From an uncultured archaeon (GTDB taxonomy: Archaea > Iainarchaeota > Iainarchaeia > Iainarchaeales > Iainarchaeaceae), in contig CAZNZM010000001.1 in NCBI GenBank assembly GCA_964577555.1, forward strand, positions 87,278 to 119,277: a stretch of DNA of 32,000 nt, given 5' to 3'. Shown here piece by piece: positions 5,831 to 30,690 of the stretch. Each line of letters begins with the position of its first letter. Position 1 is the stretch's first letter. Both the position numbers and the translations under genes were made by a program. Under the pieces are notes generated by a model, which made no database searches, was not told the origin of the DNA, and saw only the letters and a list, made by a program, of their open reading frames with translations.

Positions 5831-6343
5831 ATGAATAAAACAAAGGGACAGGTTGGAACTGAATACTTGTTTGTTTTGGCAGGCGTTATAGTGGTTTCCG
5901 TAATAGCTACAATCATGACTCTCAATTTGATTAATTCGGAAATCAATGGGCCTAGCACTGATTGGAACAAGTTTGAAAGCAAATATGCAAAATTAAACAT
6001 TATTTCAATAATTGACGATGATGAACACGAATATAAAGTAAAAGACAAACCTTTTGGCGGCTATTCATTTTTAAGAGTGGACACTGATAAAATGAAAGTA
6101 AAATTTGAAATAGTTGAAAATGCTCAAGATTATAATGTGTTTTTCAAACAAGATGGAAAACAAATATGCGGTCTGTTTAATCAAGGAAGTATAATAAAAG
6201 GTACTATAACCAGTAAAAGTATTTCTATCAATGGATGTACAAGCATGGTTTTGGGAAAACCAATAGATGTTGTAGTAACAGTAAGATATTCAGAAATAAG
6301 AAGCGAAACAGACATGGAAAAAAACTTTATGAAATTTACTTAA
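5831..6343 (+). CDS. Prepilin-like protein with class III signal peptide (orphan copy)
   Basis: The N-terminus MNKTKG-QVGTEYLFVLAGVIVVSVIATIM has a basic leader, KG-Q cleavage-type site, E at +5 and a hydrophobic helix. The remainder is beta-rich. An AT-box (gattaaatatt) lies about 25 nt upstream of the ATG. Confidence 0.75.
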   Translation: MNKTKGQVGTEYLFVLAGVIVVSVIATIMTLNLINSEINGPSTDWNKFESKYAKLNIISIIDDDEHEYKVKDKPFGGYSFLRVDTDKMKVKFEIVENAQDYNVFFKQDGKQICGLFNQGSIIKGTITSKSISINGCTSMVLGKPIDVVVTVRYSEIRSETDMEKNFMKFT

Positions 6344-11756: not shown

Positions 11757-12713
11757 ATGCAAAAAAATTTCAGAAAAATAGTGTTTTTTATTATATTATT
11801 AATTGTGTATTTTACAGGAATTGCTTTTGCAGAGTGTTTAAACGCTGCGGATTGCAGTGAAGGAAAAATTTGTGTTGCGGGAGAATGTTCTGTTTGCAAT
11901 CAAAAAAACTCAGGATTGCCTTGTAGTGACGATTCGAAAAACGATTATAACAACGATGGCATATGCACTTATGACGGTTTATGCTCAGAGTCAGTGGTTT
12001 GTCTTGACATTTCATTGAACAAGCATTTTTTTGGTTGCCAGTGTGCCAACGGCTCGCCGTGTAGCATAAGGCCTTTTGGTGAATTCAATACAAACGGGGT
12101 TTGTCTAAACGAAAAATGCGAATCAAAGTATTGTTCGTCTTCCAACCCTTTAATTCCGCAAATTTGCAGTTCAATTGAAATAACGTGTTCTGAATCAAAT
12201 GAAGGCAAATTTTGCGATTATGTTGGGGATGGGGAATTTGCCCCTGAAGGAAAACGCTGTTATTCTGGAAATTGCTCAAAAGAGGCTATATTACAAAAAA
12301 AAGAAGAGGGTGAAAAACAAGAAAAAAAAATCGACAATCCTTTTTTTCCTAATCAAGAAACAATCCAAGAAAATACTTCTAAGATAAGTTTGGCAGAACT
12401 CATTTTTGGAAAAATAATTTTTGACAGAAATTTGTTCGCTGCGTTCATGCTTTTGGCACTAATAGGCTCTTATTTTGTATTCTTGAAAACCGGGATGTTT
12501 TTTCCAACAAATGCTTCAACAACCCAAAAACAATTAGCATTGGTTAAAAGATTTCTTGCGGCCGCCTTCCTCTTCCTATTGACTTTCCAATTAGGCAGGC
12601 TTTCAAATTATTATATTTCATTTTTGTTCGTCATACTTGTAGTGCTATCAATAATAATGTCCGACAATTACTTGAGAAAAGTAAAGGGGCAAAGGCAAGC
12701 AATAAAAGTTTAA
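11757..12713 (+). CDS. Secreted Cys-rich repeat protein with C-terminal membrane anchor
   Basis: Signal peptide MQKNFRKIVFFIILLIVYFTGIAFA-EC. Three Cys-rich modules (G-x-PC...NG-x-C...C). A K/E linker. Then 2-3 TM helices. GTGAT SD-like motif upstream. Confidence 0.7.
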   Translation: MQKNFRKIVFFIILLIVYFTGIAFAECLNAADCSEGKICVAGECSVCNQKNSGLPCSDDSKNDYNNDGICTYDGLCSESVVCLDISLNKHFFGCQCANGSPCSIRPFGEFNTNGVCLNEKCESKYCSSSNPLIPQICSSIEITCSESNEGKFCDYVGDGEFAPEGKRCYSGNCSKEAILQKKEEGEKQEKKIDNPFFPNQETIQENTSKISLAELIFGKIIFDRNLFAAFMLLALIGSYFVFLKTGMFFPTNASTTQKQLALVKRFLAAAFLFLLTFQLGRLSNYYISFLFVILVVLSIIMSDNYLRKVKGQRQAIKV

Positions 12714-12834
12714 GAAATTGAAAAAAAATCAGGACAATTTCCAAGGTATTATAACAAAAATTTCTAATAACAGAAAATCAACCAATTTATTAAATATTAA
12801 TTGTTATTTGTTTTATTTTAATGGCGGATAAAAT

Positions 12835-13803
12835 ATGTTGGATATAATTTCTTTCGGCTCTGCAACTGAAGATGTTTTCGTGCATGTTCCTAAAAGCAAT
12901 TTTGGCCAAAATGGTTGTATTTTTCACCCTGGAACAAAAATTGAAATAGAGGACATGGATTATTTTATTGGTGGCGGAGCAACAAATACTGCAGTTGGTT
13001 TTTCGCGTTTTGGCCTCAAAGCCGGGGCGGTATTTGCAATAGGTGATGATGAAAGCGGTGCAGCAGTTCTCAAGGAATTAAAGAAGGAAAAGGTGTATAC
13101 AAAAAATGCTTTGGTTGTAAAAGGCAAAAAAACTTCTTATTCGGTAATTCTCACGGGTTTTGGCAGGGACAGGGTTATTTTAGTTTATAGTTCTTCTACC
13201 GCGATGCTTAATAAAATCAGGATTAATTGGAAAAAAATCAAGGCTAAATGGTTTTACGTTTCTTCATTGCACGCTGAACCCAAAATGCTTAAGGAAATAG
13301 CAAGGCATGCAAAAAAAATTAATGCGAAAGTGGCATTTAACCCTGGACAAAAAGAGCTTGAGCTTGGAATTGGCGGAATAAAAAATATTTTTGGTAAGGT
13401 GAATATACTAATATTGAACAATCATGAAGCAATGAAGCTTACTGGTTCCGCCGATATTAAAAGGAATCTTGCAAAATTGCTTGAAATAGGAAAAGTAGTA
13501 GTTATAACCGAAGGACAAAATGGAGCTCACGCAACAGACGGAAATTTTGTTTATTCTATCAAGCCTTACGAAGTAAATGTAATTGATTCAACTGGAGCTG
13601 GCGATGCTTTTGGTTGCGGTTTTGTCGGGGCTTTTGTGAAAGGAAAAAGCATTGAGGATTGCATGAAATTCGGAACAGCCAACGCGTGTTCGGTTATCAT
13701 GTATTTGGGCACAAAAAACAAGTTGCTTCGCTGGAACGAAGTGCCGAAATTTATTAAGGAACATTCAAGAAACGGAAGACAGGTTGAAGTGAAAAATTTG
13801 TGA
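12835..13803 (+). CDS. PfkB-family carbohydrate/nucleoside kinase (ribokinase-like)
   Basis: N-terminal GSATEDVFV, GGGATNTA, and PfkB signature DSTGAGDAFGCGFV near the C-terminus. Substrate cannot be assigned from sequence alone. Confidence 0.9.
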   Translation: MLDIISFGSATEDVFVHVPKSNFGQNGCIFHPGTKIEIEDMDYFIGGGATNTAVGFSRFGLKAGAVFAIGDDESGAAVLKELKKEKVYTKNALVVKGKKTSYSVILTGFGRDRVILVYSSSTAMLNKIRINWKKIKAKWFYVSSLHAEPKMLKEIARHAKKINAKVAFNPGQKELELGIGGIKNIFGKVNILILNNHEAMKLTGSADIKRNLAKLLEIGKVVVITEGQNGAHATDGNFVYSIKPYEVNVIDSTGAGDAFGCGFVGAFVKGKSIEDCMKFGTANACSVIMYLGTKNKLLRWNEVPKFIKEHSRNGRQVEVKNL

Positions 13804-13839
13804 GATTTTTCTGCAAAACCAAAATAAACAATATATTTT

Positions 13840-14514
13840 TCATTCGTCTTTGTCAGAGTATTGTTCGTATTTTGAGTTGTTGAATCTGTAAAGAAATTTT
13901 TTTATTTTGCTTTTTTTATAAGTGTAAAAGTCGAGGACTTCGTGTTTTTGGCCGCAAAATTTGTTGAAATTTACTTCTTGACAGGGATCAAGAATGCAAA
14001 AGGTTCCTTGTGATTGATTTTCTTCTTTTTGATCAGGATTTTTTCTAATCTGATTCTCGTTTGTTTTCATTGTTGTAGGCAGTATTGTAACAACAAAAGC
14101 ATGGGGTAAGCCGTTTTCCAATTCTGCTATTACTACTTCTGCATTTTCGTCTCCAAGGCTGTAAAGCAATGAGCAAAGGAAAATCGCTTTGTCTTCGTCG
14201 TCAGCCACTTTTTCTGAAACTATTTCTTTTGGAGTAAGCCAATACGAAATTCCAATGTCAGGCTCAAAAGTTGTTATTTCATCCCGTACAAAGTTGAAAC
14301 ATTTTTCTGCGGCTTTTGAATAATTGACAGGGTATAAATAGTTTTCTCCTGAAAATGATTGAACAATTGATTGTATTGTAAGGTCATTCTTTGTAACCAT
14401 TGCTTTTATTTCGCCAACAGTTTTCTGTTCTTTCTCGTTTATTAGGTTAGAATAGCGATTTACCAGTATTTTAAGTATTTTTGCAAGAAGTTCAGGGTTA
14501 CTTTCATCACCCAT
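13840..14514 (-). CDS. Hypothetical cytoplasmic protein, possibly transglutaminase-like fold with the nucleophile Cys replaced
   Basis: 224-aa ORF. YWLTPKEIVSEKVADDEDKAIFLCSLLYSLGDENAEVV...LPHAFVV...ILDP resembles the W-x-P...G-x-C-x-D-x-A...H...D layout of transglutaminase-like proteases, but has D where the Cys is expected. The functional call is tentative. Confidence 0.45.
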   Translation of the reverse strand: MGDESNPELLAKILKILVNRYSNLINEKEQKTVGEIKAMVTKNDLTIQSIVQSFSGENYLYPVNYSKAAEKCFNFVRDEITTFEPDIGISYWLTPKEIVSEKVADDEDKAIFLCSLLYSLGDENAEVVIAELENGLPHAFVVTILPTTMKTNENQIRKNPDQKEENQSQGTFCILDPCQEVNFNKFCGQKHEVLDFYTYKKSKIKKFLYRFNNSKYEQYSDKDE

Positions 14515-14676
14515 AATAAATAATATTTATTTGGTAAAGTGGTTAAAACTTGCTTTTTTGAAAAACGATGAAATAAAAGGTTTTTAATGCCAAAACGGCT
14601 TAAATAACTAAAAAAAAGCTTTTTTTCGGAAAAAAGTAATATTTAATTGTCCAATTGCCTTATTTTATAGATTTTT

Positions 14677-15093
14677 ATGGAAAAATTCAAGAGAAAAAAC
14701 GGACAGGTTGCTTTTGAATATTTGATAGTAACGGGGTTTTTTTTGTTGGTTGCCGGAACTTTTTTTATATATGCAATTGTAACCGTGAATTCTTCTCTTG
14801 GAAGCCAACAAGGCAACGATGCGGTTTCAGTGATAGCAAGCAACGCAGATTTTGTAGCATCTTTGGGAAGTGGCAGCAACATAGTTTTTGACGTGGTTTT
14901 TCCAGACAATAGTACCAACTTGCAAATTTATGAAAAACAAGTAAGGCTTGTGGTTGGCTCTGGCGATAACGCCTCCAGTTTTTACGCTTATACAAAAGCA
15001 AATATGACTCCAACAACTATTCCGGTTGAAGGCGGAAAGCGTTATTTGAAAGCTGTTTTTTTTGATGGTAATGTCTTGGTGGTGGCAGAATGA
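14677..15093 (+). CDS. Prepilin-like protein 1 (class III signal peptide)
   Basis: MEKFKRKNG-QVAFEYLIVTGFFLLVAGTFFIYAIV: basic leader, G-Q site, E at +5, hydrophobic helix. First gene of the coupled cluster. AT-box atatttaat lies about 35 nt upstream. Confidence 0.8.
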   Translation: MEKFKRKNGQVAFEYLIVTGFFLLVAGTFFIYAIVTVNSSLGSQQGNDAVSVIASNADFVASLGSGSNIVFDVVFPDNSTNLQIYEKQVRLVVGSGDNASSFYAYTKANMTPTTIPVEGGKRYLKAVFFDGNVLVVAE

Positions 15094-15446
15094 AAGGACA
15101 AAGCTCTGCTGAAGCGCTTATAGGAGTTGCATTTATATTGTTAGTATTGCTGGTTGTTATTTGGCAAAGCATTGAAATGGAGTCAAAAAGAAAAATGGTT
15201 GAAAATTTAGAAATATCGAAAAATGAGTGTTTTAAAATCCAAGGAGCAATATTAGCGGTTTATAGTGTTCCGGAAAATTCCCAAATAGAAATTTTTTCAA
15301 GTGTTGATTTCAATATTTCTGGGGAAAAAATAATAATGAATGGATTCAATTGCGATCATGTTGGGAGTCCTATTAATAAAAATTTGAAAAAAGGAAATGT
15401 CAGAATAAGAAAATCAAATGGTGGATTTGATGTTAGCAACTTCTAA
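15090..15446 (+). CDS. Prepilin-like protein 2 (class III signal peptide)
   Basis: MKG-QSSAEALIGVAFILLVLLVVIW. The start overlaps the upstream stop (ATGA at 15090-15093). Confidence 0.75.
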   Translation: MKGQSSAEALIGVAFILLVLLVVIWQSIEMESKRKMVENLEISKNECFKIQGAILAVYSVPENSQIEIFSSVDFNISGEKIIMNGFNCDHVGSPINKNLKKGNVRIRKSNGGFDVSNF

Positions 15447-15924
15447 AGGGCAAGGATTAATAATAGATTTTTCTCTTGGGTTTTTCGTATTTATAATAAT
15501 TTTCATTACAATAACAAATGCATTCAATTCAAAAATAGAGGATATAAACAAAAAAAACGATTTGGAGGCAATGCGAATAAAAGCCGGAAATTCTATGAAC
15601 TTGCTTATTAGGTCTCCTGGAGAGCCAAGTAATTGGGAAAACCTGCCAATTTCTTCGGTAAAATACATAGGCTTGGCATCCAATGACAGAAATATATTGG
15701 AAACAAAACTTTCAGCGTTTTCTAATCTCGGAGAAAATTATTTTGAAGGAAAAAGAAAAATAGGTTTGGCGGAATATGATTTCTTTTTTGAATTCCAAGG
15801 GGTTGATGATGTTAATGCCGGTTTGGAGCCTTTTGGCGATATTGACAAGGTTGTTGAAACAAGAGTAGTAAGCTACAAGGGGGAGAGTGCAATTGCAAGA
15901 CTCGTTGTTTATAAAAGCGGATAA
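15418..15924 (+). CDS. Prepilin-like protein 3 (class III signal peptide)
   Basis: (MVDL)MLATSKG-QGLIIDFSLGFFVFIIIFITI. ATG 15418 or in-frame ATG 15430. Overlaps the upstream gene. Confidence 0.7.
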   Translation: MVDLMLATSKGQGLIIDFSLGFFVFIIIFITITNAFNSKIEDINKKNDLEAMRIKAGNSMNLLIRSPGEPSNWENLPISSVKYIGLASNDRNILETKLSAFSNLGENYFEGKRKIGLAEYDFFFEFQGVDDVNAGLEPFGDIDKVVETRVVSYKGESAIARLVVYKSG

Positions 15925-18487
15925 AGGTTTTGTTTTTTCAATGGATTCGCTTGTAGCTGCCATTGCTGTAGTTGGAGCAATAATTATTTTAAGCCAACAA
16001 GCTTATGTGTCGCTTGAAGTGGATGTGCAAACCCCAAAAATAACAGATGACGCTATTTTTTCGCTTGAACAAACAGGTTATTTAGCAAATACTTTGGATT
16101 CAAACAATGAAACAGAATCGGCAGTACTTATAAGGCAAAAACTGCTTGAAAGCCTTCCTCCCGGCTTTGACGCCAATGTCACCGTCACTACATATTATAT
16201 AGACAAACAAGCTTGTGCTTCGGAAAAAACTTTTGAAGCTTGCTTTCCAGATGAGAACAGGTTCAGTGGTTATGCTGGCGAACCGGCTCCAAAAGAAAGT
16301 TTTTCTTTCAAAAAATTTTTGTTAAGAAAGCAGGCGCCTGGTGATTGCAATGTTGCATACATGGTTTTTTCAGAACCTGAAGAAAAAATATTGGAAATAA
16401 TTACAGAATCTTATAATGAACACAAACCAGAAGCCTTGTTTGATGCAAATGCTATTAATGCAGTATTTGATGTAAATGTAAATCCTGACAATGAAATAGT
16501 ATGCGATCAAAACGTTAATGTTACTCTTTCAATCAGGATTCCGAAAGATGTCAGAAAAGCAGTGGATATTATGCAGGTTTTTGACAGAAGCGGTTCAATG
16601 AATGATTCAACGGTTTTAAGAGGCGAACTAGGCAAATTCACTTACAACCAAGGAACTTATACTTATTATCAGCCCCCGCCTACTTGTTCAAATTATGGAA
16701 ATTGGATTCAAGTTGGGTCTTTCTATTTAAGTTATGATCATTCTTCAGAACAAATTGTCAATGTGTATATGCATTATACTGGTTATGATGGAAATTGCAC
16801 TTATCCAAGGCTTAGGGTTAGAAGGCCTAATGGAAATTGGGTTCCTGGAAGCAGCGGCACTTCAAGTGCATCGCCAATAAGGGTTGGTATTTCCAGCGCA
16901 AAAAAAGGTACTTATACTGTTTGGGCTTGGTCTGATGAAAATATATGGTACGATATAAATGGAAGTGGTCCTGGAATGCCAACTGGTTCTTATGGAAGTG
17001 GTTATTTAAGCGGTGGTACATATACCTATAGTTATCCGCCAATACAATGTACTTCTTATTCAAATTGGCAGACAATTACGACTTTTAATGTTGACCAAAA
17101 CTTTGCCGCAATAGAACCTTCAATGTTGTTTAATAGGAAAAATTCATCATATACCGGTTCTTGTTCTGGTTCAAGGTTTAGAATAAAAAGGCCTAATGGG
17201 ACTTACGTGCCTGATATTAATGGAACGACTTCAACACAAATTACTGTGTCAAGCCCGACTGTTGGAATTCACACTATTGAAGCTTGGAGCGATAGAAACA
17301 TAACAAGCGATTTCAATGTTTATACAAGAAAACTTACTTCTGCAAAGGTTGCCGCAAAATCTTTTACTGATTCAAACTTATGGACTACTTCAGACAGCAT
17401 GGGTTTGGTTAGTTATTCAAGCAGTGCAACTTTGTCAAGAACGCTTCTAAAACTTACTGATTCAAACAAGGCTCTTATAAAAACTTCAATTGATTCTCTC
17501 ACTGCTTCAGGCACAACTGCTACTGGCGATGCAATAGCTTTGGCGACGCAAGAATTGCAAAGCCAAAGAGCAAACCCTCTAAGCATTAAATTTCAAGTAC
17601 TTTTGTCGGATGGGCAAAGCAACACTGGAATGTCTCCATTTACAGCTGCTGAACAGGCAAAAAATGCAGGAATAATAATATACACAATAGGTTTTGGAAC
17701 TGATGTAAATGCATATGAATTAAGTACAATTGCAAATATTACCGGCGGAAAATATTATTATACTTCTGACGCAAATACGCTTAATGAAATTTATCAATTG
17801 ATTGCTTTGGAAGTTGCTGAAATGGCAAACGATTCAAACGTTGTTGTGCCAATATATTCTGGAACTTTAATAGTAAACGACGGAAATGGGGTAATACAAG
17901 ACGGAAATTTGGTATTCAATGCAGGATCAATAACTGCAAGCACACCTTGGAGCACTACTTATACATTAAACTTTCCTTGTTTGAACCCCAATGTTTGCAC
18001 TGCATCAGCATTCACTTTTCCGGGCCCGGGTTCCATGTTTATATATGTTGACAGCAATGGAATTACAAGAAATGTTGATTTCAACGCATCAAAAACAGTT
18101 TCATTCAAAAAAAGAGATTTAAATGTAGAGTTTACCGGTGGGACTGTCTTGGGCAAAGACAATGTTGTTGTGGATTTGTTAGTGAAAAACACAGGACACC
18201 TTGATGCAAACTCAACCGACTTAAAACTATACCTGAATAGCTTGTTGTCTTCACCAAAACAAATAATCGAAGTTCCGCCGCTGTGTTCAACATATACGCC
18301 TGGTTGTACTAACAATAGTACAATATTTCAAGGCATAAACCTGGATTCCGAGGGTTTGATATACGGTTCTTTAAATGACGCCAATACTATAAGCGAGTGC
18401 CCAATAGGCAATATAGCTGCAATTAATTGTACTGGCGGTCCATTGACTCAAATATATTCAATAAAATACGTGATTTGGAGGAAATGA
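15887..18487 (+). CDS. Large prepilin-like protein carrying a vWA/MIDAS domain split by a tandem-duplicated insert, plus a CARDB/Ig-like C-terminal region
   Basis: N-terminus ...FIKADKG-FVFSMDSLVAAIAVVGAIIIL (GTG 15887, or TTG 15893 seven nt after GGGGGAG). MIDAS DRSGS at 16583-16597. vWA blocks GLVSYSSSA, LTASGTTATGDAI, VLLSDGQSN, IYTIGFG. The C-terminal segment DLNVEFTGG...VVVDLLVKNTGHLDANSTDLKLYLN is CARDB-like. Confidence 0.85.
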   Translation: MQLQDSLFIKADKGFVFSMDSLVAAIAVVGAIIILSQQAYVSLEVDVQTPKITDDAIFSLEQTGYLANTLDSNNETESAVLIRQKLLESLPPGFDANVTVTTYYIDKQACASEKTFEACFPDENRFSGYAGEPAPKESFSFKKFLLRKQAPGDCNVAYMVFSEPEEKILEIITESYNEHKPEALFDANAINAVFDVNVNPDNEIVCDQNVNVTLSIRIPKDVRKAVDIMQVFDRSGSMNDSTVLRGELGKFTYNQGTYTYYQPPPTCSNYGNWIQVGSFYLSYDHSSEQIVNVYMHYTGYDGNCTYPRLRVRRPNGNWVPGSSGTSSASPIRVGISSAKKGTYTVWAWSDENIWYDINGSGPGMPTGSYGSGYLSGGTYTYSYPPIQCTSYSNWQTITTFNVDQNFAAIEPSMLFNRKNSSYTGSCSGSRFRIKRPNGTYVPDINGTTSTQITVSSPTVGIHTIEAWSDRNITSDFNVYTRKLTSAKVAAKSFTDSNLWTTSDSMGLVSYSSSATLSRTLLKLTDSNKALIKTSIDSLTASGTTATGDAIALATQELQSQRANPLSIKFQVLLSDGQSNTGMSPFTAAEQAKNAGIIIYTIGFGTDVNAYELSTIANITGGKYYYTSDANTLNEIYQLIALEVAEMANDSNVVVPIYSGTLIVNDGNGVIQDGNLVFNAGSITASTPWSTTYTLNFPCLNPNVCTASAFTFPGPGSMFIYVDSNGITRNVDFNASKTVSFKKRDLNVEFTGGTVLGKDNVVVDLLVKNTGHLDANSTDLKLYLNSLLSSPKQIIEVPPLCSTYTPGCTNNSTIFQGINLDSEGLIYGSLNDANTISECPIGNIAAINCTGGPLTQIYSIKYVIWRK
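16652..17323 (+). repeat. Intragenic tandem duplication (two modules, 16652-17014 and 17015-17323) inserted inside the vWA domain
   Basis: The protein copies share GTYTY-x-x-PP-x-x-C-x-x-Y-x-NW ... YTG-x-C ... R-x-R-x-x-RPNG-x-x-VP ... G-x-x-T-x-x-AWSD-x-NI. Confidence 0.8.
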
Positions 18488-18488
18488 A

Positions 18489-19430
18489 GTGCAAAAAGGA
18501 ATTATTTTCACGATTATGGCTTTGGTTCTAATAGCCACAATAGCCACGCTATACATGTCAGAAAAAGAGGTAGAGAAGGGAAGGAGAGAAGCGTTGATTA
18601 AAAATAGTTCCTTCAACAAGGTGTCTTCAAAATATAGTGATATAAAACAAAGCATGCTTTCCTTGCCTTTGGCTGGAAAAGAAAAGGAAAACGCTGAAAG
18701 AATTCTTCCTTTTAATTATGGCGTTGACGGGAATTCTTTTTGGGTTGGCTTTGATTTGCCTGATTCAAGCAACAAGACACAAACTTATCTTGAAACCTTG
18801 AATGCTGCAAAAATTTTTTTGGACAATGAATGGAGAAGCGAAGGAGTTGCAATTAATGCTTCATTTCCATTGCCTTATTCTTGGGGTGCTACAAATTCAA
18901 GCGTTTCATTTTTAGTAATGCCGCAATGCATGAAATTTTTGTTAAAAGACGAAAACAACGTGTCTTTTGAATTCAAATGCCAAGATTATGAAATTTCAAA
19001 TGCAAAAAAAATTGACATAAACATATCTCTAAAGCCGGGGTTGGATTTCAATTCAATGGATTGCAAAATAAACGATTATTTGTCATGCAACCAAAATTAT
19101 GATTATAATAGTTATGACAACAGACCTTACATCAATATAAAATTCCTTGACCAAAATTGCACTTCTTGTTTTATTCCTTACAAAAAAATAAGAACACATT
19201 TTGACCCTTCTGAAGAAAATTTTTTGGAACTAAAATGTTCAGGCGCGAATTGCAAAAACCCGCCAATGGATATTAATTTTTCCAATTCTATAGAAATTTC
19301 TTATAGCGGGAAAAAAATAGAGGTAAAATACAACATTGATTTTAATTCAAAAATAACCGAGTTTTTGCTTGGTGATGCAAATTTTTCAGCCACTGATGTT
19401 TATTTCGGGGCAAGAAGGTGGAATAATTGA
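18489..19430 (+). CDS. Prepilin-like protein 5 (class III-type N-terminus), Cys-containing globular part
   Basis: GTG 18489 lies 7 nt after GGAGG (18477-18481) and 1 nt after the vWA gene stop. N-terminus MQKG-IIFTIMALVLIATIATLY. Six or more Cys in the C-terminal half. Confidence 0.7.
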   Translation: MQKGIIFTIMALVLIATIATLYMSEKEVEKGRREALIKNSSFNKVSSKYSDIKQSMLSLPLAGKEKENAERILPFNYGVDGNSFWVGFDLPDSSNKTQTYLETLNAAKIFLDNEWRSEGVAINASFPLPYSWGATNSSVSFLVMPQCMKFLLKDENNVSFEFKCQDYEISNAKKIDINISLKPGLDFNSMDCKINDYLSCNQNYDYNSYDNRPYINIKFLDQNCTSCFIPYKKIRTHFDPSEENFLELKCSGANCKNPPMDINFSNSIEISYSGKKIEVKYNIDFNSKITEFLLGDANFSATDVYFGARRWNN

Positions 19431-20512
19431 AAAATATTTTTTCAACCATTCTAGCTTTTTTTATAATTTTTTTTAGTGGATGCGCAAGCATATACGCGGA
19501 GCCACCTTCTTTAGAAGTCAATATAAAATCCGGACAATACATTGAAGGTGAAGAAATAAGTTTGGAAATTATTGCAAAAAATTCCCAATCGATAAAAATT
19601 TTTTTAGGAGAAAAAACCGAAGTTGTTGAATGCAACAATAATTATTGTTCAATAAGCAAAAAACTGAATTTAAAACAAGGTGTTTATAAAATAAAAGTCG
19701 TTGCAATAGGCGATGGCGGTAAAAAAGAAGAAACGGCAACAGTAGCAGTTTTAGGCTCTTCCAAAAGATGCGTAGAAGGATTGCTTGAAGGGCAATGTTC
19801 TTCTGAAAAACCGAAAATGTGCATTAATGGGGTTCTCAAGGACAAATGCTCTGTTTGCGGATGTGATAATGGGGCAAAATGCGTCGGAGAGTATTGCGAG
19901 ATTTTAATGCCAAAGGCAAGAAAAATCGAATTGGAATATCCTAAAAAAGTCGGAGAATCACAGCCTTTTAGAATTCTTGGAAAAATATTTTTTGAAGGTT
20001 TGGTTGGTTCAAAAAAAGCGGTTGTGAAAATTGTTTTAGGTGAAACCGAATTTATTAATGAAATTTTTATAAACACAAATGAAAAAATGGTTTCTGAATT
20101 TGAGGTTTTGATTCCTGCGATTAGGAAAGGAAAACATGATTTGAGAATTGAAATTTATGAAAACAATGAAAAAGAAAAACCGATAATAACTTATTTTGAA
20201 AAAGAAGCGATTTTAGTGGTTGAAAAGGGTGATAAATTGCCTGCTCCTAAAAACCTGAGTGGTTTTTCTGAGGGAAACGACATAATATTGAATTGGAATG
20301 AAGTTAATGGGGCAAACTCTTATAATATATACAAAAGCATTGATGCAAACCCTGCATTCATTTCCTATAAAGTAATCGGAGTTGCTTCCGGCGAAAATTC
20401 TTTTGTATTACAAGAACAAAAAAAAGGGACTCATTTTTTTGTGGTTACTGCGGTTGATATTTTTGGAATTGAAAGCGATTATAGTAACGTAATTGCCATA
20501 AATGTAAATTAG
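19427..20512 (+). CDS. Putative lipoprotein with Ig-like region, Cys-rich knot and C-terminal fibronectin type III domain
   Basis: The TTG start overlaps the upstream stop (TTGA). Lipobox-like FFSGC. Cys block CVEGLLEGQCSSEKPKMCINGVLKDKCSVCGCDNGAKCVGEYC. Fn3-like LPAPKNLSG...ILNWNEVNGANSYNIYKS...FFVVTAVDIFGIESDYS. Confidence 0.75.
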   Translation: MKNIFSTILAFFIIFFSGCASIYAEPPSLEVNIKSGQYIEGEEISLEIIAKNSQSIKIFLGEKTEVVECNNNYCSISKKLNLKQGVYKIKVVAIGDGGKKEETATVAVLGSSKRCVEGLLEGQCSSEKPKMCINGVLKDKCSVCGCDNGAKCVGEYCEILMPKARKIELEYPKKVGESQPFRILGKIFFEGLVGSKKAVVKIVLGETEFINEIFINTNEKMVSEFEVLIPAIRKGKHDLRIEIYENNEKEKPIITYFEKEAILVVEKGDKLPAPKNLSGFSEGNDIILNWNEVNGANSYNIYKSIDANPAFISYKVIGVASGENSFVLQEQKKGTHFFVVTAVDIFGIESDYSNVIAINVN

Positions 20513-20572
20513 ATGTTTATGCAAAGCAATAAATATTAAGTAATTCAACCAAGTATTAGCAAAGGTGAATAT

Positions 20573-21181
20573 ATGTCCCTGTTTGAAAAAATTGCAAAGA
20601 TTTTGCCTGGAAAAAAACCTGAAAATGAAAAATTAGAGCAAAGTTCAATATATGGTTCTAATGATACTGATATAAGCACTAAATATTCAAGCCAAAGCGT
20701 TGGAAAAAGCCCTGTGAATTCAATGAAAAACGATAAAATGCAAAGTTTTCAAGATAAAACAATAAATGAACAATTTAAAGAAAAGGAAATTAAGCTGCAA
20801 AAAAGAGTTGAGACTCTCAAAAATCCTCAAAAAATTAAAATGAACGAATTAAAAACTGAAAAAAAAGAAGTTCAAATTAAGAAAGAAGAGGAAAAAACGA
20901 ACAATAAAACTTATTTGGAAAACAATGAAAACAAAAATTTCATAGAAACCGACTTTGACAAAGTTGTTTCATATATAGCACAACATGGCAAAGCATCCTT
21001 TACTCAAATTTCAAGAGACCTTGGGCTTCCATGGAATAGAATTGAGGAATGCAGCAATATTTTAAGAAATGAAAAACAAATTGAAATTATTTATCTTCCT
21101 TTTGGCGATCCAATAGCAACGGTTGTAGGCTATTCTGAAAAAAACAAGGAAACGGATTTGAGAAGGCGCAGGGTGGCGTAA
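20573..21181 (+). CDS. Low-complexity protein with C-terminal winged-helix/HTH-like domain, translationally coupled to the pilus ATPase
   Basis: AGGTGA SD lies 4 nt before the ATG. The N-terminal two thirds is K/E/N/Q-rich. The C-terminal DFDKVVSYIAQHGKASFTQISRDLGLPWNRIEECSNILRNEKQIEIIY has wHTH spacing. The stop overlaps the next start (TAATG). Confidence 0.65.
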   Translation: MSLFEKIAKILPGKKPENEKLEQSSIYGSNDTDISTKYSSQSVGKSPVNSMKNDKMQSFQDKTINEQFKEKEIKLQKRVETLKNPQKIKMNELKTEKKEVQIKKEEEKTNNKTYLENNENKNFIETDFDKVVSYIAQHGKASFTQISRDLGLPWNRIEECSNILRNEKQIEIIYLPFGDPIATVVGYSEKNKETDLRRRRVA

Positions 21182-22689
21182 TGCAACAAGAAAAGCCTAT
21201 AAAAGAATATGAAATTTCTAATGGCAGTGCAAAATTTCTAATTAGAATTACTTATAAGCCCGGGGACTTTGTAAGAACCTATGAATTGGTGTTGCCTGAA
21301 TATGGTATAGGCACAAAAGCCCTTATTGAAAACATGAAAAGAGTAATAATATCTGACGAATCGCTTAAAGCAGAAAAAATGCTTGAAGCCAAGGAAATAG
21401 ACAGCATAAGAGCCATTTTTAAGGAAAAATCAGAGAAAATGCTTGAAAACGAACTTCCTAAAACTGATGAAAAAACCAGGAATATGCTTACTGAAATTCT
21501 GATAAACGAAATGCTGGGCATTGGTAAAATAGATTTTTTGCTTCTTGACGGAAACCTTGAAGAAATAGTTGTTAACAATTCGCAAGAACCTATTTGGGTT
21601 TATCACAAGGAATTTGGTTGGTTGAAAACCAATGTGGTGCCAGAGTCTGAAGAGCAAACTCTTAATTGGGCTAATATAATAGCAAGGCGTGGCGGGAAAC
21701 AAATCACCGTACTCAACCCTTTATTAGATACTCATCTTGTGACTGGAGACAGAGCTAATGCAACGCTTTTTCCAATTAGCAGCAAAGGTAATACAATAAC
21801 AATAAGGAGATTCAGACGGGAACCGTGGACGGTAACTGATTTTATAAGCAACAGAACAACAACCAGCGAAGTCATGGCTTTGATTTGGATGTGCATACAA
21901 TATGAAATGAACATGATTCTTTCAGGCGGCACTGCATCTGGAAAAACAAGTTTCATGAACATTTGTCTTCCGTTCATACAACCTAACCACAGAGTTATAA
22001 CAATAGAAGACACGAGAGAACTAATGTTGCCGGAATTTCTTCATTGGGTGCCAATGACTACAAGAGAAGCAAATGCTGAAGGAAAAGGCGAAGTTACGAT
22101 GCTTGATTTGCTTGTAAACAGTTTAAGACAAAGACCCGACAGGATAATCGTGGGTGAAACAAGAAGACAAAAAGAAGCGGAAGTAATGTTTGAAGCAATG
22201 CATACGGGGCACAGCGTATATACTACGTTCCACGCTAACACTGCTGAAGAAACCATAAGAAGATTTGTCAGTCCACCTATTGAAATACCGCCAACTGTTC
22301 TTGACTCAGTACATCTTAATGTAGTAATGTTCAGAAACAGAAGGCTTGGAGTAAGAAGGGTTTTGCAAGTGGCTGAATTCATTCCGGAAAAAAGGGGAAA
22401 CGAAGAAACTTTGAAAGCAAACACTCTTTACAGGTGGCACGCAGGCGATGACTCAATTACAAAAGATTCTGAAAGCATAAGGTTGTATGATGAACTTTCA
22501 TTGCACACTGGCTTGACTTATGATGAAATAAACAAAGATTTGACAATGAAGAAAAAAATTCTTGATTGGCTTGTAAAAAACGACATAAGACACATTTCAA
22601 AAGTAGGTGCTGTAATGGCTAAATATTATATGGATGAAAAAGAGATTTCCAGAATAGTTGAAAGAAACCTCAAACCTGATTTCATATGA
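21181..22689 (+). CDS. Type IV filament assembly ATPase (GspE/VirB11/PilB-ArlI superfamily, T2SSE)
   Basis: Walker A GGTASGKTS (21925-21951), Asp box ITIEDTREL, Walker B RPDRIIVGETR (from about 22141), His box GHSVYTTFHAN. The 502-aa length is typical of archaeal pilus/archaellum ATPases. Confidence 0.95.
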   Translation: MQQEKPIKEYEISNGSAKFLIRITYKPGDFVRTYELVLPEYGIGTKALIENMKRVIISDESLKAEKMLEAKEIDSIRAIFKEKSEKMLENELPKTDEKTRNMLTEILINEMLGIGKIDFLLLDGNLEEIVVNNSQEPIWVYHKEFGWLKTNVVPESEEQTLNWANIIARRGGKQITVLNPLLDTHLVTGDRANATLFPISSKGNTITIRRFRREPWTVTDFISNRTTTSEVMALIWMCIQYEMNMILSGGTASGKTSFMNICLPFIQPNHRVITIEDTRELMLPEFLHWVPMTTREANAEGKGEVTMLDLLVNSLRQRPDRIIVGETRRQKEAEVMFEAMHTGHSVYTTFHANTAEETIRRFVSPPIEIPPTVLDSVHLNVVMFRNRRLGVRRVLQVAEFIPEKRGNEETLKANTLYRWHAGDDSITKDSESIRLYDELSLHTGLTYDEINKDLTMKKKILDWLVKNDIRHISKVGAVMAKYYMDEKEISRIVERNLKPDFI

Positions 22690-23585
22690 ACAAAAAAAAT
22701 TTAGGAAAAATACCTTTTATGCCGATTCCGTCACAAATCATTATGGCTGTGACAAACAATTTTCTTGGCGTAGGCGGTGTCGTCTCAAAATTTTTTCCGA
22801 AATTGGAAGAATCTTTGGTTCAAGCGGATTTTGAAATACAAAAAGAAAGATATAGCGCGATTATAGCACTGGGATTTTTTATTTATTTAATACTTGGATT
22901 TTTAATTTGTTATTTATTTGCGATGCAATTTCAACCAAAAAACTCTTTTATAATAGGCATTCTTGGGGGTTTTTTTGCAGGAATTCTGGTGGCAATCCAA
23001 ATAGCTTTTTATCCTGCAATACAAGCAAAAAAAAAGATAAGAGGAATTGAAAGAAACCTTTTGTTTGGACTTAGAACAATATTGGTTGAAATAAAATCCG
23101 GAGTAACTCTTTTTGATGCGATTAATCTGGTTGCACAAGGAAATAATGGCGAATTAAGCAAAGAATTTTCCAAAGCGGTAAGAAAAATACAAACTGGAAC
23201 ATATCAAAACGTGGCGCTTGAAGAAATGGCTGAAAACAACCCGTCGGTTTATTTTAGAAGGGCAATATGGCAACTTGTTAACGGGTTGAAGTCAGGTGGA
23301 GACATAAGTACAATAATGCAAAGCCTTGTAGACGGGCTTTCAAAAGAAAAAGCCAATCAAGTGAAAAAATACGGCAATACGCTCAAACTTTTTTCCTTGA
23401 TGTATATGATGCTTGGAGCAATAATACCCGCCCTCGGAATAACCTTTTTGATAATACTTTCAACTTTCCCAAGCATGACAATAAATGAAACGGTTTTTTG
23501 GGGTTTGTTCGGATTTTTGGCTTTGGGGCAATTCATGTTCCTTGGCATGATAAAATCAGCCAGACCAAGCCTTCTTGGTGATTAA
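22686..23585 (+). CDS. Pilus platform membrane protein, single T2SSF domain (TadB-like half)
   Basis: ATGA overlap with the ATPase stop. TM helices flank the T2SSF-type block LRTILVEIKSGVTLFDAINLVAQGNNGELSKEFSKAVRKIQTGTYQNVALEEMAENNPS...IWQLVNGLKSGGDIS. Confidence 0.85.
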   Translation: MNKKNLGKIPFMPIPSQIIMAVTNNFLGVGGVVSKFFPKLEESLVQADFEIQKERYSAIIALGFFIYLILGFLICYLFAMQFQPKNSFIIGILGGFFAGILVAIQIAFYPAIQAKKKIRGIERNLLFGLRTILVEIKSGVTLFDAINLVAQGNNGELSKEFSKAVRKIQTGTYQNVALEEMAENNPSVYFRRAIWQLVNGLKSGGDISTIMQSLVDGLSKEKANQVKKYGNTLKLFSLMYMMLGAIIPALGITFLIILSTFPSMTINETVFWGLFGFLALGQFMFLGMIKSARPSLLGD

Positions 23586-23587
23586 AA

Positions 23588-24595
23588 ATGTATGAAGGGT
23601 TTTCATCATTAATTCCTAAAAAAGTCTATGAAGCTTACAAAAAAGAAATAATATATAATGGCTTGAAAATAAGGCCTGAAAAATTCATAGGTTTTTTGTT
23701 TTATTTTGGACTTCTTGGAGGAATAGGCGCAGGATTAATTTTGAATAGATTTTTCAAAATTGATTTTCTCGTGACTTTCATTGTTTTTTTCTTATCAACA
23801 TTTATTTTGGCTTTTGTTTTAATGCGACTTAAATCCGAATCAAAAGGAAGGATTGCGGAAAATGTCCTACCTGATGCTCTTCAACTAGTGGCGGCAAACA
23901 TGAAAAGCGGATTAACAACTGAAAGGGCGCTTTTTGTAGCCGCAAGACCGGAATTTGGCCCGATACAAGTGGAACTGCTTAATGCAAGTAAACGCATTTC
24001 TACTGGTGAAAGAGTTGAAAAGGCATTGTTAGGAATAAGCGAAGCAATAAATTCAACAGTGGTTGAAAAAACAATGTGGCTTATCTCTGAAGGAATAAAA
24101 AGCGGAGCCCAAATGGCAGACCTTCTTTACCAACTGTCAGATGATTTGAAAAACGAACAAGCAATAAAAGAGGAAATAAAAGCGAATATTTCAATATATG
24201 TAATACTAATAATTTTTGCGGCAAGCATAGGGGGCCCGTTGCTTTTTGGAGTAAGCTCTTTCATAGTGCAAGTTCTGACAACTCAAATAAGCAAAACACC
24301 TGAAATGACAACAAGCAAAACCACGGGGCAAAGTAACATGCAAGGAAATTTATCTTTAATATCTCAATTTGCATCCGGAAAAAGGAAGTTTGTCAGCATA
24401 GAATTCATAATACAATTTTCCGTAATAATGCTAATAATGACAAGTTTTTTTGCTTCTCTCACAATAGGAGTAATAAATACGGGCAAGGAAATAAACGGAG
24501 TTAAAATGATTATCCCGATGATTATTATTTCATTAATAATTTTCTATTCAACAAGAGCGGTTTTGCTTTCAGTATTCAAAAATCTTATAACTTAA
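23588..24595 (+). CDS. Pilus platform membrane protein, single T2SSF domain (TadC-like half)
   Basis: 2-nt gap after the previous gene. T2SSF-type block LPDALQLVAANMKSGLTTERALFVAARPEFGPIQVELLNASKRISTGERVEKAL...ISEGIKSGAQMADLL with flanking TM helices. Confidence 0.85.
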   Translation: MYEGFSSLIPKKVYEAYKKEIIYNGLKIRPEKFIGFLFYFGLLGGIGAGLILNRFFKIDFLVTFIVFFLSTFILAFVLMRLKSESKGRIAENVLPDALQLVAANMKSGLTTERALFVAARPEFGPIQVELLNASKRISTGERVEKALLGISEAINSTVVEKTMWLISEGIKSGAQMADLLYQLSDDLKNEQAIKEEIKANISIYVILIIFAASIGGPLLFGVSSFIVQVLTTQISKTPEMTTSKTTGQSNMQGNLSLISQFASGKRKFVSIEFIIQFSVIMLIMTSFFASLTIGVINTGKEINGVKMIIPMIIISLIIFYSTRAVLLSVFKNLIT

Positions 24596-24601
24596 AAAAA
24601 A

Positions 24602-25489
24602 TCATGATTTGAATAAATTCGGAAAAAATTTCCAAACACCAACAACCAACAAAATTATAATTCCAAGAATTACAACAGGATACAACAAATCCATTATGCT
24701 TATTATGCCTTGCCCTTGATTTTTAAATTCTCCTTGTGTTTGCTTGTTTTTATCATCGGAAACAATAACAGGCTTGATTGGTTTTTTCCCTGAAAGTTTG
24801 TTTGAATCGTTTGCCACTTGGGTTCCGGAAACATTAAAATCGATTCTTTTTTCCAAAGAATAATACTTTATTTTTTTGTCTGTGGAATAAACAGTTACAA
24901 GCGCAACATACTCGCCTTCTGAAGCTGGCTTCCAGAGTTTTTTAAAACTTGCATTTGTGGTTTCATTTGGCAGAACATTTTTCAATTTTAGGATGTCTGA
25001 ATGAACCACTTTATTCTTATAAGATATTTTCAATTCAATTAAGGCGTCTAAAGGGGCGTTGCCGTTTTCAAGATTTAAAGAAAGATTTTTGTCTTTCCCG
25101 CTTTTTAAGTCTTCAAGCAACAAATCAACATTAGAAATCTTTTTTATTGGTTGAGTGACACTTGGACTTTCCACTATGCCGGAACCGCCAGAAGAACCTG
25201 AACCTGTGCCACTTTGTATTCCGCTTTGCTGGGATTGGTTTGTGTTTGATTGTGTTTGATTGACACATGAACCGCAATCTGACGGACAATTACTGCAATT
25301 TTCACCGGATTGACAAATATTATTTCCGCATAAAACTGTTTCAGGGTCAAGTTCAGTTATATCAATATCGCTCGGAGTAGGCGGGTATGGAACAAAACCT
25401 GTTGTGGGAATTGAAATAGTCGTGGTTGAAAAAAAAACAAAAGATAATACTGCTAAGAAAATAAAAAAAAATGAATTATAAGTTTTCAT
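24602..25489 (-). CDS. Secreted, C-terminally anchored surface protein with Cys-knot, Q/S/G/N linker and CARDB-like beta-sandwich
   Basis: The likely start is ATG at 25489 (MKTYNSFFFIFLAVLSFVFFS signal). The track start 25579 adds an implausible leader. CGNNICQSGENCSNCPSDCGSC motif. C-terminal TM VVILGIIILLVVGVW. The stop lies 6 nt from the convergent platform gene. Confidence 0.75.
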   Translation of the reverse strand: MKTYNSFFFIFLAVLSFVFFSTTTISIPTTGFVPYPPTPSDIDITELDPETVLCGNNICQSGENCSNCPSDCGSCVNQTQSNTNQSQQSGIQSGTGSGSSGGSGIVESPSVTQPIKKISNVDLLLEDLKSGKDKNLSLNLENGNAPLDALIELKISYKNKVVHSDILKLKNVLPNETTNASFKKLWKPASEGEYVALVTVYSTDKKIKYYSLEKRIDFNVSGTQVANDSNKLSGKKPIKPVIVSDDKNKQTQGEFKNQGQGIISIMDLLYPVVILGIIILLVVGVWKFFPNLFKS

Positions 25490-25614
25490 AATGCTATAAT
25501 AAATGAATAACTTATTTATATAATCGTAACAATTTGTGATTAAAACCCAATTTTTTACAATTTTAAATTTTAAACGCATAAATTATTATTGCAACTTTGC
25601 AAAAAAAATAGGTT

Positions 25615-25636
25615 ATTGCTCCCTTTCGGGAGCAAT
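25615..25636 (-). terminator. Perfect 9-bp hairpin followed by T8 on the - strand, downstream of the candidate major pilin gene
   Basis: attgctccc-tttc-gggagcaat (25615-25636), 18 nt after the pilin stop. On the - strand it is followed by aaccta + T8 (25601-25608). Confidence 0.6.
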
Positions 25637-26085: not shown

Positions 26086-26092
26086 CCCTCCC
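26086..26092 (-). promoter_or_regulatory. Strong Shine-Dalgarno (GGGAGGG) 5 nt upstream of the pilin ATG
   Basis: The - strand reads gtaaGGGAGGGaaaaaATG. Confidence 0.55.
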
Positions 26093-26137
26093 TTACGGCT
26101 TTTCATTATAAAGCCTTTGTTGTAAATAGGATTTTCT

Positions 26138-26149
26138 TATATATAAACT
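26138..26149 (-). promoter_or_regulatory. TATA-box-like element (- strand GTTTATATATAA) about 58 nt upstream of the pilin ATG
   Basis: The position is compatible with a 30-35 nt leader carrying the SD. The AT-rich background makes this weak. Confidence 0.3.
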
Positions 26150-30596: not shown

Positions 30597-30690
30597 AAAT
30601 ACCAAAAGACAAAGAGCGATATGTTTTTTAGCGGTAATAACTACGTTATTTGGAAACAATAAATGCCTTAATCGACTCTATGGTGTAAAA

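Follow-up and report, generated by a model that had tools for sequence, protein, structure and literature searches.

A conserved two-module locus in an Iainarchaeota archaeon that likely encodes an adhesive type IV pilus with a VWA-bearing modular pilin

Introduction

Makarova (2016) described archaeal pilus loci, in Clades 1 and 2, that carry five or more minor pilins together with two TadC genes and large tip adhesins of the PilY-like type, and modelled them by analogy with bacterial tip complexes. In Clade 2, many loci contain a pair of tadC-like genes, and the major pilins of the PilA type (arCOG02416) stand alone. AfGspE (AF0659, PDB 2OAP) is a typical Clade 2 (arCOG01817) ATPase, and the two Nanoarchaeota genomes, which were the sole DPANN genomes included in that study, have Clade 2 ATPases as well (Makarova 2016). 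In the classification of Sivabalasarma & Albers (2026), System 1, with two platform genes, and subsystem 4A occur in DPANN, System 2 has a single platform gene, and PilY-like adhesins are found in several systems. DPANN "dark matter" islands, in which an ATPase, TadC and TadB lie amid signal-peptide proteins that were read as diverged pilins, are described in Makarova, Wolf & Koonin (2019). Here we analyse a stretch of 32,000 nucleotides (the window) from an uncultured archaeon of the Iainarchaeota (DPANN; assembly GCA_964577555.1, contig CAZNZM010000001.1, positions 87,278 to 119,277 of the forward strand), which contains a cluster of ten genes, g1 to g10, and a separate pilin gene, m2, just downstream.

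Together these genes likely encode an adhesive type IV pilus of two-module build, with a pilin module (g1-g6) and a motor module (g7-g10). The pilus operon is real and is conserved phylum-wide in Iainarchaeota. It is a variant of the archaeal machines already catalogued and no new kind of machine. Experimental knowledge of the surface organelles of DPANN archaea is close to nil, and for Iainarchaeota the locus supplies a concrete parts list: a motor with a split platform, the probable major pilin, five minor pilins and a putative VWA/MIDAS (metal ion-dependent adhesion site) adhesin. We describe its gene content, the class III motifs and their conservation, the domain architectures, the synteny and the pilin fold of m2, and compare these with the nearest known systems.

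Organization of the Locus

The features of the locus are listed in Table 1. A preliminary description of this DNA, made from its letters and open reading frames (ORFs), had counted eleven plus-strand genes between 14677 and 24595. The ORF list contains ten consecutive ORFs, g1-g10, in this interval, and there is no space for an eleventh. Their lengths are 138, 118, 168, 866 and 313 aa for g1-g5 and 361, 202, 502, 299 and 335 aa for g6-g10. The window corresponds to bases 88-32087 of an 84,062-bp metagenome contig of the Joint Genome Institute (JGI). The same genes are present in independent JGI gene calls on this source contig, in which g3 starts at ATG 15430 (164 aa) and g4 at TTG 15905 (860 aa); with these starts the overlaps are 17 nt for g2/g3 and 20 nt for g3/g4. 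A database protein (P0121) is 100% identical to the 860-aa form of g4. A check of the sequence found the junctions as they had been given, with ATGA at 15090-15093 and 22686-22689, TTGA at 19427-19430, TAATG at 21179-21183, gaps of 1-2 nt before 18489 and 23588, and a sole 60-nt gap before 20573. GGAGG/GGTG-like ribosome-binding sites precede most of the internal genes of g1-g10, and the GC content of the window is ~0.33. The 60-nt gap is taken as the boundary between the two modules, because in relatives g1-g6 and g7-g10 are separable or invertible, or g1-g6 are missing.

The locus encodes a secretion ATPase of the T2SSE family, a T2SSF platform which is split over two genes, and five leading proteins with class III signals for which cleavage is predicted. 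These are core components of the type IV filament superfamily, and the identification of the locus as a type IV filament machine therefore holds.

Table 1. Coordinates of the features of the pilus locus in the window; a slash marks the predicted cleavage site. TM, transmembrane segments.
Feature	Position (nt)	Strand	Remarks
u1, transglutaminase-like (CEP76-peptidase/DUF553-like)	13840..14514	-	Pfam PF24656 E 7.5e-7; divergent from g1
g1, small minor pilin, 138 aa	14677..15093	+	class III signal KRKNG/QVAFEY
g2, small minor pilin, 118 aa	15090..15446	+	MKG/QSSAEA; ATGA overlap with g1
g3, minor pilin, 164 aa from ATG 15430	15430..15924	+	ATSKG/QGLIID; ORF opens 15418
g4, putative modular pilin-adhesin, 860 aa	15905..18487	+	KADKG/FVFSMD; pilin-like helix and head, VWA with complete MIDAS
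g4 MIDAS loop DRSGS	16583-16597	+	with T538 and D569
g4 variable insertion, nested in VWA after DxSGS loop	16604..17326	+	two tandem ~115-aa beta-rich repeats
g4 CARDB-like beta-sandwiches, C-terminal	~17912-18484	+	AlphaFold2 (AF2) C-terminal beta-sandwiches
g5, minor pilin-like, 313 aa	18489..19430	+	MQKG/IIFTIM; conserved cysteines; orphan family
g6, N-terminally anchored extracellular protein, 361 aa	19427..20512	+	one N-terminal hydrophobic segment; not a pilin
g6 module with ten invariant cysteines	~19631-19897	+	ortholog alignment
g6 Fn3 domain, C-terminal	~20246-20509	+	profile-level match
Intermodule gap, AT-rich, 60 nt	20513..20572		between pilin module g1-g6 and motor module g7-g10
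g7, cytoplasmic, 202 aa	20573..21181	+	Lys/Glu-rich low-complexity N-terminus, C-terminal winged-helix; TAATG with g8 start
g8, secretion-superfamily assembly ATPase, 502 aa	21181..22689	+	Pfam T2SSE 2.9e-32
g9, platform half 1, 299 aa	22686..23585	+	one T2SSF domain 1.4e-17; ~4 TM
g10, platform half 2, 335 aa	23588..24595	+	one T2SSF domain 8.7e-13; ~5 TM
Terminator-like element after m2	25601..25635	-	9-bp predicted stem TTGCTCCC-GAAA-GGGAGCAA at 25616-25635
m2, candidate major pilin, 141 aa	25655..26080	-	MISNKRG/QSALEYLMTYGWALIVI; outside the range of the preliminary description
m2 Shine-Dalgarno-like GGGAGGG	26086-26092	-	sequence inspection only
m2 TATA-like TTTATATATAAG	26136-26147	-	sequence inspection only

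Class III Signals of the Five Leading Proteins

Class III signals were detected with a FlaFind-like rule of our own, which asks for [KRDENQ][GA] in the first 45 residues followed by 20 residues with a mean Kyte-Doolittle value of at least 1.6. Of the 43 ORFs of at least 100 aa in the window, seven passed this rule, namely g1-g5, m2 and the plus-strand ORF at 5831-6343, and the other 36 failed. The five N-termini quoted in the preliminary description were correct, and its assignment of class III signals to the five leading proteins stands, as all five pass the rule and their orthologs, which were drawn from 80 related loci, are positive in proportions from 15/16 to 37/40.

Each family keeps a motif of its own around the predicted cleavage site. 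The orthologs of g1 are signal-positive in 30 of 31 cases, with the motif [KR][AG]/QxxxEY, and 25 of 26 have both the +5 Glu and the +6 Tyr. For g2 the signal is found in 15 of 16 orthologs (/QxSxEA, with +5 Glu), for g3 in 37 of 40 (KG/Q....D, conserved), for g4 in 34 of 38 ([KR][GA]/FxFSx[DE]) and for g5 in 36 of 38 ([KR]G/[VI]LF[ST], with an invariant Gly at -1). Orthologs of m2 are positive in 52 of 54 cases, with the motif /QSALEYLMTYGWA. Judged from these alignments, the retention of family-specific class III motifs is far beyond chance.

The proteins g1 and g2 are paralogs over their full length (hhalign 96%), and g3 and g5 are distinct; the resemblance between g1 and m2 is confined to the N-terminal 38 residues. 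For g5 no relatives were found in Pfam or NCBIfam, nor in PDB with a profile of the family, which is small: a search of 1.84 billion proteins gave 119 representatives at E<=1e-3. The best reading of g1-g5 is a minor-pilin/tip complex, with a location that is probably at the tip by analogy with bacterial systems.

Conservation and Synteny in Iainarchaeota

Synteny was determined by BLASTP of the window proteins against the ORFs of 80 species-representative related loci. The g8 homologs with 60-77% identity are named Candidatus Diapherotrites or Iainarchaeum, and homologs which are ~50% identical occur in Woese-, Aenigmat-, Micr- and Parvarchaeota. The full order g1-g10, m2 (minus strand) and coaD (minus strand) is present in many Iainarchaeota (for example L002, L007, L008, L016, L034, L039 and L059). 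The complete genome of archaeon GW2011_AR10 (L013, CP010424) has the same order, with g2 not detected. Where the ATPase was at least 58% identical and the contig reached 8 kb or more upstream (35 loci), g4 is found upstream in 30 and g5 in 29. In other DPANN phyla, with lower ATPase identity, g4-g7 are present in 0/12 loci and g1- or g3-like pilins in 4-6.

The two modules do not always stand together. In L005 and L040 the pilin and motor modules are separated or inverted. In the close relatives L001, L033 and L057, one of which has 75% ATPase identity, g7-g10, m2 and coaD are kept and g1-g6 are absent upstream; here the missing genes are either located elsewhere in the genome or lost.

The same locus was also seen in six contigs (L027, L029, L031, L054, L058 and L076) that are filed as Chloroflexi/Chloroflexota, Falkowbacteria, Thaumarchaeota or Methanosarcinales metagenome-assembled genomes, with ATPases that are 52-64% identical. 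These are most likely mis-binned DPANN contigs.

g4 Is a Predicted Modular Pilin with a VWA Domain

The largest protein of the pilin module, g4, combines a class III signal and pilin module with a VWA domain (Pfam E 1.2e-20; the match starts from profile position 34 at residue 499) that has a complete MIDAS, the combination of a modular type IV pilin, and its incorporation into the pilus is predicted. The DxSGS of the MIDAS is formed by residues 227-231 in the numbering from the TTG start and is invariant in the family alignment together with T538 and D569. In the AF2 model, a helix (residues 13-57) and an alpha/beta head have predicted local distance difference test (pLDDT) values of 70-91, and the VWA domain (475-642) has values of 80-93, followed by beta-sandwiches at the C-terminus. 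Foldseek matches of g4 include vWF-A3, integrin I domains, BatB, SpaC (the tip adhesin of a sortase pilus), LapA vWFA and Streptococcus sanguinis PilB (7b7p).

Between the DxSGS loop and the remainder of the VWA domain lies an insertion. In the window copy it consists of tandem repeats that align with a score of 199, compared to 33 +/- 6 in shuffles, and that have no Pfam match. Most g4 orthologs, AR10 included, have an LVIVD beta-propeller at the insertion site (E 1e-17 to 1e-54), whereas no propeller or PilC-domain match was found in the window g4 with Pfam. In a canonical VWA domain the spacing from DxSGS to SDG is roughly 100 aa; in the g4 orthologs it ranges from 214 to 1204 aa. This spread, together with the differing modules, marks the position next to the MIDAS as a hot-spot of module exchange. 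The longest orthologs noted (L019, L041 and L075) are 1650-1880 aa, with ~1000-1200 aa from the MIDAS loop to SDG.

An experimental parallel is PilB of S. sanguinis, a vWA modular pilin and adhesin that is probably located at the pilus tip (Raynaud 2021). Like g4, PilB has a class III signal and a pilin module fused to a vWA domain with canonical MIDAS. In PilB and in RrgA, "arms" flank the MIDAS, and the variable module of g4 occupies the same position. The resemblance to bacterial tip complexes extends to the gene neighbourhood, in that g4 sits among four other minor pilins. The two proteins differ in where the variable module sits, which is within the VWA domain in g4 and appended in the PilB type, and in that g4 is archaeal and has CARDB-like domains added C-terminally; their homology is limited to the VWA fold, with 17-19% identity in Foldseek. 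PilY1 joins a vWA domain and a beta-propeller. The same pair of domains occurs in the g4 orthologs, though not in the window copy, and this is an analogy only. The function of g4 is thus, by these analogies, probably adhesion, and the module nested beside its MIDAS is likely a determinant of specificity for a substrate or partner, for which its variability makes it an obvious candidate.

In their survey of modular pilins, Raynaud et al. (2021) covered bacterial InterPro pilins only and do not mention archaea, and no mention of a VWA-bearing class III protein in archaea was found in the literature searched on archaeal and DPANN pili. As far as this literature goes, g4 would be an archaeal instance of the "modular pilin" principle known from bacteria.

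The target of such an adhesin could be another cell. DPANN are mostly ectosymbionts, type IV pili drive episymbiosis in bacterial candidate phyla radiation (CPR) analogues (PMC9894109), and the nested g4 module varies by lineage as a specificity determinant would, all of which fits a pilus that serves as the host-contact apparatus of a host-dependent DPANN cell and in which the g4 module sets the host range. Plausible as it is for DPANN, we nevertheless regard this reading as tentative and on balance unlikely, since Candidatus Iainarchaeum andersonii is possibly free-living according to a review, glycolytic and CoA-biosynthesis genes are present in the window, VWA adhesins bind many substrates, including abiotic and polymeric ones, and the locus is without a cell-cell-specific feature. 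For the first two of these reasons the "reduced, probably host-dependent" way of life that had been assumed for the organism is not established, and cell-cell contact is one possible adhesion target and not one that is derived from the data.

m2 Is a Candidate Major Pilin

Downstream of g10, and convergent to it, lies m2, which the preliminary description had missed. Its mature N-terminus is near-invariant (G/QSALEY) in 95 database homologs, with conservation of Q8, A10, E12, Y13, L14 and T16-L21, and the +6 Tyr is present in 39/40 orthologs and 91/95 database homologs. Members of the family are 134-175 aa long, and those with names are from Diapherotrites. The AF2 model (pLDDT 91.6) consists of a helix (residues 6-34) and a seven-strand beta-sandwich, and its full-length structural matches in Foldseek were archaeal pilins only, namely Aap of Sulfolobus acidocaldarius (8q30) and the pilin of Pyrobaculum calidifontis (8fk7). 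At the level of sequence profiles, the best match of m2 to PDB sequences reached only E ~0.03.

As predicted from sequence, m2 is monocistronic with putative expression signals of its own. Besides the upstream elements in Table 1, its GC-rich hairpin is followed by a T8 run at 25601-25608, and the 65-nt region has a predicted fold of -18 kcal/mol. In 41/62 loci an m2-like gene, frequently duplicated, follows g10 at a distance of up to 5 kb downstream. Taken together, the sequence and the model suggest that m2 is most likely the major pilin that forms the shaft. With m2 showing what one would expect of a major pilin, the pilins of the operon are all five best read as minor.

A second pilin-like gene is located at 5831-6343 on the plus strand. 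It encodes a protein of 170 aa (MNKTKG/QVGTEYL) that matches Pfam Class_IIIsignal with E 0.002, below the gathering score, and it is followed at 6425-7045 (plus strand) by the gene for a lipobox (LSGC) protein with Ig-like/CarboxypepD_reg-type domains. From its sequence, the 5831-6343 product could serve as a further subunit of the filament or, as an alternative to m2, be the major pilin.

In another reading of the locus, no long filament would be built, and g1-g5 would form a short surface pseudopilus or bindosome-like display, as in the Sulfolobus bindosome or a T2SS pseudopilus. Such a stalk would hold the VWA protein, and possibly further proteins with class III signals, at the cell surface, and m2 would have an unrelated function. 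Two of the five signal proteins are indeed large multi-domain surface proteins (866 and 313 aa), the pilin module is missing beside the motor in some relatives, the NCBIfam model of the bindosome ATPase BasE matches g8 with 138 bits, and class III-signal binding proteins have been argued to functionalise type IV filament machineries (Sivabalasarma & Albers 2026). However, m2 has the small size of a classical pilin and a near-invariant helix, and it stands beside the motor in most of the loci, the BasE score is far under its cut-off (1000) and lower than those of FlaI and TadA, and no substrate-binding-protein domains were found in g1-g5 with Pfam and NCBIfam. A pseudopilus is therefore improbable, and a pilus with m2 as its shaft remains the preferred reading.

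The Motor Module and Its Relation to Known Systems

The first gene of the motor module, g7, encodes a protein in which no TM segment was found. Its winged-helix gave weak matches in the window copy, and orthologs matched HTH_Mga (4.6e-5) and HTH_24 (6.5e-4). Orthologs of g7 range from ~190 to 1010 aa and were found in 37 loci, always immediately upstream of the ATPase. The assignment of g8 to the GspE/VirB11 family is supported by the T2SSE match and by all four motifs, which are intact: Walker A (GGTASGKT), Asp box (ITIEDTRE), Walker B (IIVGETR) and His box (GHSVYTTFH). The platform had been described as one T2SSF membrane protein; there are in fact two single-domain T2SSF genes, g9 and g10, a split that matters greatly for classification. 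They are 28% identical across the T2SSF domain, and no match to them was found in PDB. On the UpsF model (484 positions), g9 covers positions 25-226 and g10 positions 269-472. With g9 as the N-half and g10 as the C-half, the pair is colinear with an unsplit platform, as simple fission would give.

The top NCBIfam match of g8 is the FlaI model (NF058587), with 277 bits against a cut-off of 550. Among solved structures the best match is AfGspE (2OAP, 229 bits), ahead of FlaI (178 bits) and CpaF, the bacterial sister of Clade 1 in the TadA/CpaF group, which is the weakest of the three (150 bits). A PilB3_C match is weak (E 0.077), and this domain was found in 7/120 ATPase homologs. Some g8 homologs are named CpaF or TadA by NCBI and several "flagellar protein FlaI" by JGI. 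One g8 homolog (P0109, 670 aa) has a precomputed PF14890 (intein splicing) match, which suggests an intein-containing pilus ATPase.

By best hit, the system appears closest to Clade 2, the euryarchaeal type that includes AfGspE and PilB3/PilC3 of Haloferax volcanii with its PilA pilins. It shares with Clade 2 the arrangement of a stand-alone major pilin, here the candidate m2, and separate Ig-like minor pilins in the motor locus, and two tadC-like genes are frequent in that clade. It differs from Clade 2 in the +1 Gln, +5 Glu and +6 Tyr of its pilins, as the Haloferax pilins are without +5 Glu, and the g4, g5, g6 and g7 families are not among the described Clade 2 components; System 2 of Sivabalasarma & Albers (2026) has one platform gene where this locus has two.

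Other traits point to the Epd pilus of Methanococcus maripaludis (Clade 1/System 1), which likewise has its platform in two single-T2SSF genes, along with numerous minor pilins, a large adhesin and pilin N-termini with +1 Gln/+5 Glu; Sulfolobus and Haloferax pilins lack +5 Glu. Nevertheless, EppA, the dedicated 9-TM peptidase that is often in the Epd locus, was not found in or near this locus, nor near most of its relatives. The Epd major pilin is ~70 aa without a globular domain and m2 is 141 aa with a beta-sandwich. The order is platform-platform-ATPase in Epd and ATPase-platform-platform here, and in M. maripaludis the ATPase and platform genes are at a separate locus and the adhesin domain is DUF2341 instead of VWA. 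Neither m2 nor g1 matched Pfam Class_IIIsignal (DUF361).

A third set of similarities is with the Tad/Flp pilus, in which the split platform immediately follows the ATPase, as it does here. The motif G/XXXXEY of m2 and g1, which we take to be the "Flp motif", is shared with that pilus, as are two small paralogous minor pilins, and the VWA pilin-like protein parallels TadG. The pilins of M. maripaludis are without the +6 Tyr of Flp pilins (Nair et al.). On the other side, CpaF is the weakest solved ATPase match and m2 has a globular domain. Pfam Flp_Fap, TadE and Tad-N gave no match at E<=0.1 to 1, the window has no TadZ/MinD gene, and no secretin was found. The resemblance of g9 to the N-half and g10 to the C-half is the opposite of the TadB/TadC assignment of Denise 2019.

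Its ATPase resembles Clade 2, its split platform Epd and Tad, and its G/XXXXEY motif Flp. The system is thus a mosaic, and its mixed traits are useful for relating archaeal pili and the bacterial Tad pilus. A bolder proposal would make the DPANN pilus the closest archaeal counterpart of Tad/Flp, nearer to it in design than Epd, on the strength of five Tad-like features: the split platform right after the ATPase, the Flp-type motif in a major and in a minor pilin, the small paralogous pair (compared with TadE/TadF) and the VWA-bearing pseudopilin (compared with TadG). In that case a DPANN-like lineage would have been the archaeal donor of Tad, and the nested, exchangeable g4 module would be a cassette for host or substrate specificity; taken as a whole, we consider this proposal quite unlikely.

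The tip complex had been thought to resemble bacterial minor-pilin complexes more than archaeal systems. The minor-pilin/tip role remains the best reading, but the contrast with archaea does not hold, as Clade 1/2 loci of this kind were already described (Makarova 2016), and DPANN loci with a split platform and diverged pilins had been noted too (Makarova, Wolf & Koonin 2019; Sivabalasarma & Albers 2026). The kind of locus was likewise known (Makarova 2016; Makarova, Wolf & Koonin 2019), and the exact gene set was not found in the literature searched. The description of the DPANN islands is a general prediction, and in its accessible text there is neither a VWA pilin nor a dissection by family nor an assignment of the major pilin. 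AR10/CP010424 is not classified in the supplements of Denise 2019.

That the locus is an archaellum or degenerate archaellum operon is very improbable: it is favoured by the FlaI top match, the JGI names and KaiC/ArlH-like ATPases ~8 kb downstream, from which the locus is separated by housekeeping genes, whereas the FlaI score is about half its cut-off, AfGspE scores better than FlaI in PDB, the platform is split, unlike ArlJ, and, as had been noted before, archaellum accessory genes are missing from the locus, with no Pfam or NCBIfam match to archaellin, ArlC/D/E, ArlX, ArlF, ArlG or ArlH among g1-g7, m1 and m2.

Proposed Assembly of the Pilus

In the mechanism that we propose for the adhesive type IV pilus, g1-g5 and m2 would be cut after the conserved Gly/Ala by a PibD/EppA-type peptidase encoded elsewhere, and the g8 ATPase, as a hexamer, would act with the split inner-membrane platform g9/g10 to extract the pilins from the membrane. 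By analogy with the bacterial minor-pilin/PilY1 and GspHIJK complexes, g1-g5 would prime assembly and remain at the tip, where g4 would display its MIDAS face and the lineage-variable module, and m2 would polymerise into the shaft. A membrane-anchored Fn3/Cys-rich envelope accessory protein would be provided by g6. The product of g7, which is translationally coupled to g8 and is probably an adaptor or regulator, would couple to or regulate the ATPase.

Several points weigh against this reading. No prepilin peptidase was found in the window and ~10 kb downstream (~42 kb in total, the extension being taken from the contig of a second sample), nor within 10 kb of the cluster in the 80 relatives. 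For the window the lack of an A24 prepilin peptidase had been pointed out before, and searches with Pfam, NCBIfam and a GxGD-plus-TM screen agree with it; applied to the window and 84 loci, this screen returned T2SSF proteins and two unrelated candidates (L074 19102-20013 and L078 17554-18768). PibD-type genes are commonly stand-alone. The class III test used our own rule instead of FlaFind, and the clade of g8 was assigned by best-hit scores in PDB and NCBIfam and not by a phylogeny. Where m2 matches solved structures of archaeal pilins, it does so weakly (E ~5e-3 to 1e-2), and the identity of the major subunit is not certain, as the product of 5831-6343 and g1 also have the motif of m2. Finally, confidence in the g4 model is only partial (mean pLDDT 58.8), with the insertion at residues 234-474 unmodelled (pLDDT <30); the model is shallow because its alignment consists of 9 sequences.

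Accessory and Neighbouring Genes

The last protein of the pilin module, g6, had been called an Fn3 lipoprotein. The Fn3 domain is supported at the profile level only, by matches of the ortholog profile to chitinase A1 Fn3 (1K85, E 4e-7), 3MPC (E 2e-5) and other Fn3 domains, and Pfam alone gave no Fn3 match. As for the lipoprotein part, the lipobox FFSGC is particular to this genome and its cysteine is not conserved in orthologs. Six of the 21 g6 orthologs passed the class III rule, which we read as chance.

Upstream of the pilin module lies u1, which has no TM segment or signal and is found directly upstream of g1 in 13 related loci. Transglutaminase-like peptidases have been linked with archaeal type IV pilus loci (Makarova 2016), and the conserved position of u1 beside g1 matches this link. 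From its sequence and position, u1 is a candidate accessory gene.

Genes for cysteine-rich secreted or membrane-anchored proteins without a Pfam match flank the locus at 10771-11742, 11757-12713, 24602-25579 (minus strand) and 28815-30596. The CxxC-rich modules of these flanking proteins resemble the invariant-Cys module of g6. Two of them, 11757-12713 and 24602-25579, were compared with the 80 related loci and gave no BLASTP match.

Other neighbouring genes encode PGK, a cupin-type GPI, GAPDH, a PfkB kinase and PGM, and CoaD and CoaE of CoA biosynthesis. These genes of central metabolism and CoA biosynthesis around the pilus locus point to a housekeeping context and not to a mobile island. 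A tRNA scan of the whole window found no tRNA genes.

KaiC-like ATPases have been proposed as regulators of archaeal pili and archaella. On L081, positions 11760-17026, which lie ~5-10 kb past the operon end and whose start overlaps the window at ~30574-32000, contain the gene for an 808-aa DUF7504 protein followed by three KaiC/RecA-like ATPase genes of 353, 243 and 197 aa (PF06745, DUF7125).

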